From: a virus
DNA: 9,584 bases
UHGV virus genome: UHGV-0197445
Direction: 5' to 3' (one strand)
Positions 3,160 to 5,429 of the stretch are shown piece after piece (position 1 is the stretch's first letter; the number at the start of each line of letters is the position of its first letter). Both the position numbers and the translations under genes were made by a program. A model generated the notes under the pieces. It was not told where the DNA came from, made no database searches, and saw only the letters and a list, made by a program, of their open reading frames with translations.

Positions 3160-4404
3160 TCAGTTCAGGTTGTCCCGGAACAGTTCACCGCTCCTCGCGG
3201 CGCTGCGGGGCGTCGCCCTGCTCCGGTCAACCTTTCTGACCTGAAGCATCACCATAATATCAGTCTTGTTGCTTTCACTGGTACGGGAACCGAAGAAGCT
3301 CCAGCCGGAACTGGCCTTACTGTCTTTCTGTTCAGCAAGGCCACCAAGTAAAATAATATCACCATCTGCAAGGCTGACTTCGGTTGTTACATCACGCTTG
3401 ATAAGGGTTGGCGAGTTATTGACGCCGGTTTCAGTGGTCACAAAGTTGGAAAGCTGCTGCTGAATCTTGAGATCCATTGTCCGACTTTTGATTGATGGCG
3501 TTACGTTAAACAAAACACCGCTGGAACGATATTCAACGGATTGCGTGGTCGTATTGTTATTCACCGTAACACTGCCCAGTACTGGCACATCAGAGCCGAC
3601 TGAAAAAGACGCTGAGGCATTATTTTTTACCCGCAGTCGTGGCGCACTGACAACAGTAAAACGACTGTCGGTTTTAAGCAGATTGAAAATGGCATCAATG
3701 GAGCCGGTTCGAATATTGATAAAATTATCCAGTCCGGCAGCACCAACTGAAATATTGAATTTATCAGACAGAATTTTAGCCGCTAAAAGAATGCCGGAGC
3801 CGTCAGACTGCGAGGTCTGAACCTCAAAAACATAACCAGAAACAACCACTTCATCACTCATCGTATCCAGCGAAGTGACCAGTGTTTTCAGGATGGCGAT
3901 ATCCTCTTTCGTACCATAATAAACCAGAATATCACCGGTTCGATTGATGTAGTTGCTTGCCCCTGATGAACCTTTTAGCGAATCGTCAGAAATCACGGCT
4001 CCACTGTTATTGAAGGAGCCTGAAACGTAGCCGCCAAGAATATCAGACAGGTAGGCAACAGAACGGTACTGAGGCGTATAAGTCCATGTATAACGTGGCT
4101 TAACCGGCTCTTTCGGCGTATAGGGCGCGATAAAATCAACACCCTTTTTCGTCCATATTCGAATGTTCATATTGCGAAGATAACGGGTTACAAATTCCCG
4201 TTCATCAATATCAGGTGTTAACCTGAATGTAATCATTCGTTCATCATTAACAAGCTGTGGATCTAGCATATACGGGACTTTAAGCACCTCACTATAAATA
4301 AGAGAAATAGCCTCCGGTAGCTTGACTTTATTTAATTCAAGCTCTGACCCTGCGAAAGCACATGAAGAAAATAGTAGCGTTAATGCGAGTAAAATCTTTT
4401 TCAT
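3160..4404 (-). CDS. Filamentous-phage secretin (pIV-like outer-membrane export channel)
   Basis: 414-aa ORF with an N-terminal signal peptide (MKKILLALTLLFSSCAFA). The C-terminal region has secretin-like motifs (VPVLGSV..., GGLAEQ...). Its ATG overlaps the stop of the upstream Zot-like gene (TAATG), and it is the last gene of the morphogenesis operon as in Ff phages. Confidence 0.85.
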   Translation of the reverse strand: MKKILLALTLLFSSCAFAGSELELNKVKLPEAISLIYSEVLKVPYMLDPQLVNDERMITFRLTPDIDEREFVTRYLRNMNIRIWTKKGVDFIAPYTPKEPVKPRYTWTYTPQYRSVAYLSDILGGYVSGSFNNSGAVISDDSLKGSSGASNYINRTGDILVYYGTKEDIAILKTLVTSLDTMSDEVVVSGYVFEVQTSQSDGSGILLAAKILSDKFNISVGAAGLDNFINIRTGSIDAIFNLLKTDSRFTVVSAPRLRVKNNASASFSVGSDVPVLGSVTVNNNTTTQSVEYRSSGVLFNVTPSIKSRTMDLKIQQQLSNFVTTETGVNNSPTLIKRDVTTEVSLADGDIILLGGLAEQKDSKASSGWSFFGSRTSESNKTDIMVMLQVRKVDRSRATPRSAARSGELFRDNLN

Positions 4405-5429
4405 TATTTTTTCCCCGTATAAAGCGTCACACGCTCACCATCAATAATTCCGCTCATCAACATCCCTTTGTAATTAAAACTGGATGCAGGAACGGCACGC
4501 AAAACACCGGCACCGTTAACAAGAATCACAAACGCCCTGCCTTCACTGGTCATTCTCCCTGATATACGCCACTCGGTTGAAAGTGGCGGTTCAGCTGGTT
4601 CTGAGGGAGTATCTGGTGCTGGAGTAGCAGCGGAAGAACGAAACATGGCCGCATCACGTACATCTGTTGTAGCCAAATCTGGCGAGGGATCGCTTCGGCC
4701 AAACGTGCTGAAAAATGAGTAAATCAGCCAGCCTGACCCGATAAACATCAATGGAAAAAGCACAAGAAAGAACCTGACTTTGCCAGAATTCCAGATGCTC
4801 TGGCGTTTATCTGTCTGCTTTTCATTACCGTTATTTCCTTCATAGCTTTTATAAAGTTCAAAAATATCAGGGTTATATTTATTGCGATAACTGGTGACGA
4901 GGTTGCTTTTATAGATTTTGTGGCCTGAATATACGTCAATGCAGTAATGATTATTCAGGCCCAACGCTTTCAGCTTGCGCATCCGGTAAGTTGTTTCTAT
5001 TTTGTCTTTCAGAAAGCGAGCAATATTAGAAAGTGACTGATTTACAATAACCAAATCACAGCTAATACCCGTTTCAGGGTGCGTAAAATGACGATGTTCA
5101 GCAATAAATGATTTCTTCTCAGCCGTCATATCCTTATCGCTACCGAAGATTCGCCATGCTTCATCAATAACAATTAAATCACCAAACTGGCAAAAGCTCC
5201 CTTCCCCACCTTTAAAAGGAAAGAAATCTGCTTTAAGCACATCATCATTATCCACAACAATAATTTCTCCCGTTGCATCAGGATAACGTTCGGTGATTTT
5301 ATCTTTTTGTAAACCATAAATGTTCGTCACAACTCTCCGGCCGCTGGTAAATGCAGGAATAATGACATTGCAAACGGCTTCATAACTTTTTCCTGAGCCG
5401 GGTATGCCAATATATGCAGAAATAGCCAT
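4404..5429 (-). CDS. Zot/pI-family phage assembly ATPase
   Basis: 341-aa ORF with N-terminal Walker A GIPGSGKS and Walker B LIVIDEAW. A single TM segment follows (about aa 220-242, FFLVLFPLMFIGSGWLIYSFF), then a Pro/Ser/Thr-rich periplasmic tail. This architecture is typical of gene I / Zot proteins. Confidence 0.9.
   Translation of the reverse strand: MAISAYIGIPGSGKSYEAVCNVIIPAFTSGRRVVTNIYGLQKDKITERYPDATGEIIVVDNDDVLKADFFPFKGGEGSFCQFGDLIVIDEAWRIFGSDKDMTAEKKSFIAEHRHFTHPETGISCDLVIVNQSLSNIARFLKDKIETTYRMRKLKALGLNNHYCIDVYSGHKIYKSNLVTSYRNKYNPDIFELYKSYEGNNGNEKQTDKRQSIWNSGKVRFFLVLFPLMFIGSGWLIYSFFSTFGRSDPSPDLATTDVRDAAMFRSSAATPAPDTPSEPAEPPLSTEWRISGRMTSEGRAFVILVNGAGVLRAVPASSFNYKGMLMSGIIDGERVTLYTGKK

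Follow-up and report, generated by a model that had tools for sequence, protein, structure and literature searches.

The YpfΦ/CUS-1 prophage family is well known and has been linked to the fitness of plague bacilli and extra-intestinal E. coli. In YpfΦ, the genes YPO2279 (zot) and YPO2280 (secretin) are placed in a 'secretion' module, and disruption of YPO2279 abolishes particle production (PMC4266046), whilst a 2023 paper uses the gene names zot and gspD2 for the same pair (PMC10354491). Two forms of translational coupling between adjacent genes have been described, reinitiation by the terminating ribosome and unmasking of a structured ribosome-binding site (RBS) by the upstream ribosome; reinitiation drops quickly with intercistronic distance and is enhanced by a Shine-Dalgarno (SD) sequence without requiring one, as shown for gene V-VII of M13/f1 (PMC2268962). 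Here we analysed the zot-secretin junction of UHGV virus genome UHGV-0197445, a stretch of 9,584 nucleotides referred to throughout as the window. Since it is 99-100% identical to its counterparts in E. coli and Y. pestis and has the same gene order (repressor, rep, single-stranded DNA (ssDNA)-binding, coat, pIII-like (puvA), pVI, zot, secretin), the window is, by sequence, a YpfΦ (CUS-2)/CUS-1-type inovirus. A first-pass annotation of this DNA had read a stop/start overlap between zot and secretin as translational coupling of two proteins that work together in virion export, a partnership that agrees with the published secretion module of YpfΦ (PMC4266046). The features that define the junction are the following.

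4404..5429, minus strand: Zot/pI-like assembly ATPase gene (zot), 341 amino acids (aa); PF05707 2.2e-26 (residues 4-196), PHROG 197 'Zot-like toxin' 7.6e-94.
3160..4404, minus strand: secretin/pIV-like gene, 414 aa; PF00263 1.3e-24; PHROG 1012 'assembly (protein IV of M13)' 5e-138, residues 1-394.
4406..4402, minus strand: TAATG, formed by the zot stop TAA (4406-4404) and the secretin start ATG (4404-4402), which have base 4404 in common.
4407..4412, minus strand: run of six A (A6) encoding Lys-Lys of zot, with the SD-like motif on one side and the stop/start on the other; it belongs to an initiation region that is rich in A and has little structure.
4413..4416, minus strand: SD-like GGGG, 9-12 nt upstream of the secretin ATG, within zot codons Thr-Gly (ACG GGG).
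4351..4404, minus strand: secretin signal peptide codons, MKKILLALTLLFSSCAFA followed by GSE, with a basic n-region, a hydrophobic core and an AxA-type cleavage motif; cleavage site placed by eye.
5433..5720, minus strand: pVI-like (DUF2523) gene, PF10734 1e-20, with a 3-nt gap to zot; this gap served as the control junction.

On the minus strand (within window 4470..4340) the junction reads ...CTT TAT ACG GGG AAA AAA TAATG AAA AAG ATT TTA CTC..., so that two genes on the same strand adjoin with a one-base overlap, the geometry of a translationally coupled pair. Sequence, open reading frame (ORF) coordinates and RefSeq annotation all bear out this overlap: both listed ORFs begin with ATG, and NCBI PGAP/RefSeq annotates both coding sequences with the identical one-base overlap in an E. 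coli prophage that is 100% identical over window 3000-5600. The two gene calls, which the overlap had been said to support, hold also by the Pfam and PHROG matches given above. For secretin, an in-frame stop lies 30 nt upstream of the ATG with no earlier start codon between, and the next in-frame Met is residue 46, past the signal peptide; the start therefore has no real alternative. In agreement, 18 homologues (50-77% identity) all start at the aligned Met with an N-terminus of like kind.

Both proteins have the architecture expected of their families. Zot has a Zot domain with an N-terminal P-loop (Walker A GIPGSGKS at residues 8-15, read from the translation), then one hydrophobic segment at about residues 220-240 (VRFFLVLFPLMFIGSGWLIYSFF) and a periplasmic C-terminal part that ends ...LYTGKK before the stop (from the translation), the arrangement of PF05707 assembly ATPases; a sequence search found no solved-structure relative of Zot. 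The secretin combines a PF00263 domain with a signal-peptide-like N-terminus and adjoins an inovirus pI/Zot gene, as is typical of phage pIV, and matches GspD (1.3e-16) and f1 pIV 7OFH (9.6e-11, over the secretin domain) in the PDB. The homologue alignment also revealed a ~20-aa C-terminal tail, SRATPRSAARSGELFRDNLN (window 3160-3222), that runs past the end of most homologues and is held in common only with the Pectobacterium/Brenneria-type relative.

As a pentamer TAATG is nothing special, with 45 copies in the window where 30.2 +/- 5.5 are expected, and only the copy at 4406-4402 links two long, homology-supported ORFs. Beyond chance are the placement of this copy, where those two ORFs end and begin, and the retention of a stop/start overlap in relatives. 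Relatives were taken as secretin homologues, one genome per species plus IMG/VR, with the Zot stop and secretin start located at each locus. For the main counts, the start was set only by where query residue 1 aligns, giving 101 distinct 200-nt junction contexts with secretin identities of 29-100%. These alignment-only counts serve as the main figures because the other start-choice rules were imperfect: in some divergent loci the nearest-to-alignment rule settled on TTG/GTG codons further downstream, and in three clades the most-upstream signal-peptide-like rule settled on upstream ATGs. Each count takes a distinct sequence or an identity cluster as its unit rather than an independent evolutionary event, and starts in divergent loci are assigned by inference.

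A 4- or 1-nt stop/start overlap was found at 75/101 zot-secretin junctions, with 64 at -4 (ATGA) and 11 at -1; six more were at +1 and the remainder was scattered, several being evident miscalls or decayed genes. Where the alignment reached residue <=3, overlaps made up 62/72 (52 at -4, 10 at -1). At the control pVI-zot junction of the same loci only 5/94 overlapped (Fisher p = 5e-25 compared with zot-secretin), gaps there being short yet variable, mostly +2 to +12 nt. After clustering of secretins at 70% identity to lower phylogenetic redundancy, overlaps were present in 24/34 zot-secretin and 3/32 pVI-zot clusters (p = 3e-7); a start choice preferring tight candidates gave 27 at -4, 2 at -1 and 3 at +1 of 34 clusters, a biased figure that serves as an upper bound only. 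In these alignments the overlap is thus kept across secretin identities of 29-100%, and its excess over the neighbouring junction argues for selection on tight juxtaposition.

The form of the overlap is less constant than its presence. ATGA is the common form, TAATG being a variant of the window's clade that is not conserved, and the sister clade (Phytobacter, Brenneria, Pectobacterium; 77-80% identity) has TAAtATG (+1). TAGTG occurs in two near-identical IMG/VR contigs (L008/L093, 2989-3009 and 2489-2509; L016/L104, 2519899624_000001 and 2010170003_000002), where a single A>G at the common base turns TAA into TAG and ATG into GTG together, the sole substitution there that preserves both signals. 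Whether ATGA, TAATG, TAGTG or TAAtATG, the changed junctions remain tight.

An SD-like motif accompanies this geometry. In a simple duplex model, pairing of the GGGG with the 3' end of 16S rRNA yields -5.7 kcal/mol, which 7.4% of operon positions attain; by the same model, coat reaches -6.4, zot -4.6, G5P -8.7 and pVI -8.2 kcal/mol. Relatives show enrichment for a motif of this kind ahead of the secretin start (median -5.7 kcal/mol), with 73% at or below -4 kcal/mol compared with 15% of background zot positions, and it often consists of the codons TCAGGRG of a conserved ...Tyr-Ser-Gly.... The junction geometry, the gene identities and the conservation of both the tight junction and the SD are direct observations.

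Transcription signals were sought with a crude consensus scan, from which a weak internal promoter could escape, and no strong promoter or terminator was seen inside zot or the 5' part of secretin. The scan lists three weak terminator-like hairpins within zot, of which that at 4787-4773 is on the coding strand and the other two are on the opposite strand, and one 9/12 promoter-like match on the minus strand (4430..4403) ends on the secretin start codon. Promoter-like matches in the region numbered 17 compared with 18.8 in shuffles, giving no enrichment. Terminator-like hairpins that fit the operon lie in two places, after the coat gene and after secretin, each called by the consensus scan only.

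3077..3106, minus strand: terminator-like hairpin with a T-rich tail, downstream of the secretin stop.
7476..7498, minus strand: terminator-like GC hairpin with a T run, just after the major coat gene and upstream of the pIII-like gene.

The first of these is likely the 3' end of the morphogenesis/export transcript; the second has the position of the terminator after gene VIII in Ff phages. With no strong promoter or terminator match between the two genes, the operon appears intact, and zot and secretin are probably co-transcribed. In the literature on YPO2279/YPO2280 expression we found nothing beyond a review statement on RovA, according to which transcription of YPO2274-YPO2279 rises in a rovA mutant (PMC4266046).

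The explanation that we prefer, with moderate confidence in it as a whole, is that of a genuine overlap on a single transcript with SD-helped reinitiation, probably alongside some independent initiation. Zot and secretin would be transcribed together with the pIII-like and pVI-like genes, the transcript ending at the hairpin after secretin. A ribosome terminating at the zot UAA would already sit on the secretin AUG, and a fraction of such ribosomes would most likely reinitiate there, helped by the GGGG in the last zot codons. Free 30S subunits can probably also start at this AUG, given an open, A-rich leader that carries an SD of its own. Coupling would then act as a floor for secretin synthesis and as a means of proportionality, not as its sole source. 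Taken by itself, the central part of this explanation, a shared transcript on which reinitiation accounts for a material part of secretin output, is on balance probable; the weight of each initiation route we infer from sequence.

Several observations weigh against such coupling. The secretin SD is equal to or better than that of zot itself (-5.7 vs -4.6 kcal/mol), all junctions of this compact genome are short, and in ~9% of E. coli ORFs the start overlaps the preceding stop (PMC2268962). The 131-nt junction RNA has a minimum free energy of -18.1 kcal/mol compared with -23.9 kcal/mol for dinucleotide shuffles (z = +1.68), with 197/200 shuffles folding at least as well, and 89 related junctions have a mean folding z of +0.26, with 3% below -1.5 and no conserved folding. 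Since the junction RNA is less folded than shuffles and relatives have no conserved folding, nothing forces dependence on zot translation, and the moderate SD in an unusually unstructured initiation region makes de novo initiation independent of zot translation plausible. These folding values (z = +1.68 here, mean z +0.26 in relatives) also speak against the RBS-unmasking, or facilitated-binding, form of coupling. Of the coupling proposed by the first-pass annotation, what stands is thus the overlap, kept at 75/101 junctions against 5/94 at the neighbour; the moderate SD and open initiation region of secretin speak for some independence, the unmasking form is unlikely, and TAATG is not the conserved form.

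The main rival to reinitiation, which we consider rather unlikely, is a merely compact junction: the overlap would reflect genome compaction without functional coupling, and practically all secretin would come from ribosomes initiating de novo at the SD of its open, A-rich leader. The moderate SD (-5.7 kcal/mol) and the lack of structure around the start, here and in relatives, fit this account, as do the short distances at all operon junctions (-1 to 12 nt, save those bearing terminators) and the 2-nt gap of phage IKe with its RBS annotated inside gene I. Compaction, however, does not readily explain why the adjacent pVI-zot junction overlaps in only 5/94 loci, its gaps of 2-12 nt varying freely, whilst zot-secretin overlaps in 75/101; moreover, a terminating ribosome near an AUG suffices for some reinitiation in E. 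coli (PMC2268962). Expression of secretin mainly from a promoter of its own inside zot, which would make the overlap irrelevant to expression, is improbable. In Ff phages, f1 among them, a weak promoter lies ahead of gene IV, and the 9/12 match at 4430..4403 could be taken for such a promoter, but a transcript from a match ending on the start codon would have no SD and probably no AUG, and such matches are no commoner than in shuffles. The YpfΦ review, furthermore, describes regulation from the YPO2274 promoter region (PMC4266046).

Least probable of all, and by a long way from likely, is a Zot-secretin fusion made by -1 slippage in the A6 run before the stop (or by an A-insertion variant), reading through Ile-Met into the secretin frame. 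Secretin lies in the -1 frame of zot, which is open for 10 codons upstream of the ATG, and a slip in AAA AAA would read ATA ATG AAA; it is conceivable, if very far-fetched, that a few ribosomes slip at AAA-AAA-UAA to read ..TGKK-I-MKKILL.., the fusion tethering or regulating the inner-membrane ATPase and the outer-membrane channel. Yet G_AAA_AAA, as read in the zot frame, departs from the canonical X_XXY_YYZ heptamer, there is no structure downstream of it, the A run is missing in most relatives and the -1 frame of the sister clade ends after two codons. A fusion would also be expected to put the secretin on the wrong side of the membrane. Databases do hold proteins with both Zot and secretin domains, but the five inspected (P0003, P0008, P0009, P0015 and P0025) each carry an in-frame internal deletion, with breakpoints that differ among all five, and were rejected as slippage products, leaving the open -1 frame across the junction as the sole support for slippage.

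These database proteins are relatives of window 3160-5429 and 8361-9413. P0025 is found on 66 contigs, and P0009, from Salmonella Typhi, has 673 aa and bears the name 'putative phage secreted protein'. In a further protein, P0001, the deletion joins the Rep N-terminus to secretin. By their sequences, the Zot- and Rep-secretin proteins look like recurrent prophage deletion derivatives that lose the junction and the secretin signal peptide.

Pfam and PHROG matches show that the minus strand otherwise holds a canonical inovirus operon, with the following genes upstream of the pVI-like gene.

9413-8361, minus strand: replication protein.
8349-8032, minus strand: G5P-like ssDNA-binding protein.
8029-7778, minus strand: 83-aa membrane protein.
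7743-7510, minus strand: major coat protein.
7445-5733, minus strand: pIII-position protein, 570 aa.

For the pIII-position (puvA-like) gene, RefSeq takes as start a GTG equivalent to window 7295 (520 aa), where SD-like pairing is lacking (+0.9 kcal/mol). An ATG further upstream, at 7445 (570 aa), is preceded by GGAG (-6.4 kcal/mol), and the PHROG profile aligned from residue 28. The longer call may be the real one rather than that from the RefSeq GTG. A search of the whole window against Rfam at gathering thresholds found nothing.

Window 3000-5600, comprising zot, secretin and flanks, is 100% identical in E. coli APEC E19019 and 99.8% identical in UTI89. Part or all of it was detected in 112/5426 complete E. 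coli genomes, with >=80% of the stretch in 95; the carriers among those listed came mostly from human, poultry or pig sources. The phage often has several copies per genome, carrying E. coli genomes having it in a median of two and up to five places. The secretin is also 100% identical in Y. pestis NCTC5923, which has two tandem copies; these lie 8742 bp apart, consistent with tandem integration. Megablast of window 3000-5600 against the phage collection gave no match, and tblastn gave only distant gut and saliva inoviruses (26-49% identity).

To judge from a related circular record, the window appears to be a whole circular phage genome opened precisely at the helix-turn-helix repressor ATG. 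NZ_CP128883.1, a 9565-bp circular E. coli record (deposited as plasmid pMTY14759_untypable1) with the same gene order, matches window 2193-9584 at 99.5% and window 1-962 at 97.4%, and its rep/repressor intergenic region has the same length, 171 nt, as the stretch between the rep start (9413) and the end of the window. With the genome opened at the repressor ATG, the two parts of the divergent regulatory region fall at opposite ends of the window. Between the two matching parts lies a variable cargo segment (963-2192), beside a dif-like site, with a 358-aa ORF on the plus strand (1121-2197). For this ORF no Pfam family was found, and its sole PHROG match, phrog_17621 (7.4e-49), has no assigned function. 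The segment is not common to the 9565-bp record and was covered to >=80% in 7/5426 complete E. coli genomes. In line with cargo variability, attL-side ORFs differ between YpfΦ and CUS-1 (PMC4266046).

No E. coli dif with <=3 mismatches was found in the whole window, and a looser scan gave the dif-like 28-mer GGTGCGCATAATGTACGACACGTTATGT on the minus strand (2288-2261). It agrees with E. coli dif at 21/28 positions, the XerC arm at 11/11 with the XerD-side arm degenerate, and is on this likeness a candidate attP at which Xer recombinases could integrate the phage. It is followed, at about 2217-2253, by a GC-rich hairpin with ten perfect base pairs, GGCCGCTGCG...CGCAGCGGCC.

For the window itself, the analysis confirms two gene calls and an intact export module and has little further import. 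The junction belongs to a known element and is already annotated in RefSeq, and few arrangements are commoner in bacterial and phage operons than a stop/start overlap with an SD embedded in it. The comparative addition is modest and would hold no surprise for a specialist: the ATPase-secretin overlap, usually ATGA, is held far more strictly than the neighbouring junction, with an SD in the last codons of the ATPase. That the junction is conserved together with the embedded SD suggests that selection has kept synthesis of the two export-machine partners in proportion, and the natural variants ATGA, TAATG, TAGTG and TAAtATG offer a simple, testable system.

Amongst described phages, the window carries the same element as YpfΦ (CUS-2) of Y. 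pestis and CUS-1 of E. coli O18:K1:H7, with zot and secretin corresponding to YPO2279 and YPO2280 ('GspD2'). It differs from them in the cargo segment beside the dif-like site (963-2192), which is absent from the 9565-bp circular E. coli record, and the two papers cited above do not discuss the zot-secretin junction itself (PMC4266046; PMC10354491). The Ff phages (M13/f1/fd) and If1 share the order of a pI-type ATPase gene followed by a pIV secretin gene, the secretin start lying inside or at the end of the ATPase gene. Their proteins are only distantly related to those of the window (f1 pIV 7OFH, E = 9.6e-11 over the secretin domain), and their gene I/IV overlaps of 23 nt in M13 (4220-4242) and 20 nt in If1 are, unlike that of the window, not stop/start overlaps. 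In IKe, the gene I-IV junction is tight and the RBS is annotated inside the last gene I codons, like the GGGG of the window, although a 2-nt gap takes the place of the overlap. A parallel in stop/start geometry within filamentous phage is gene V-VII of M13/f1, where stop and start lie within one nucleotide of each other and which is the experimentally established model for reinitiation (PMC2268962). For the gene VII-derived start, an SD had to be added in the reporter, and the downstream reporter depended on upstream translation (PMC2268962); the secretin of the window, unlike that start, has a moderate SD, so its dependence on zot translation may be partial.

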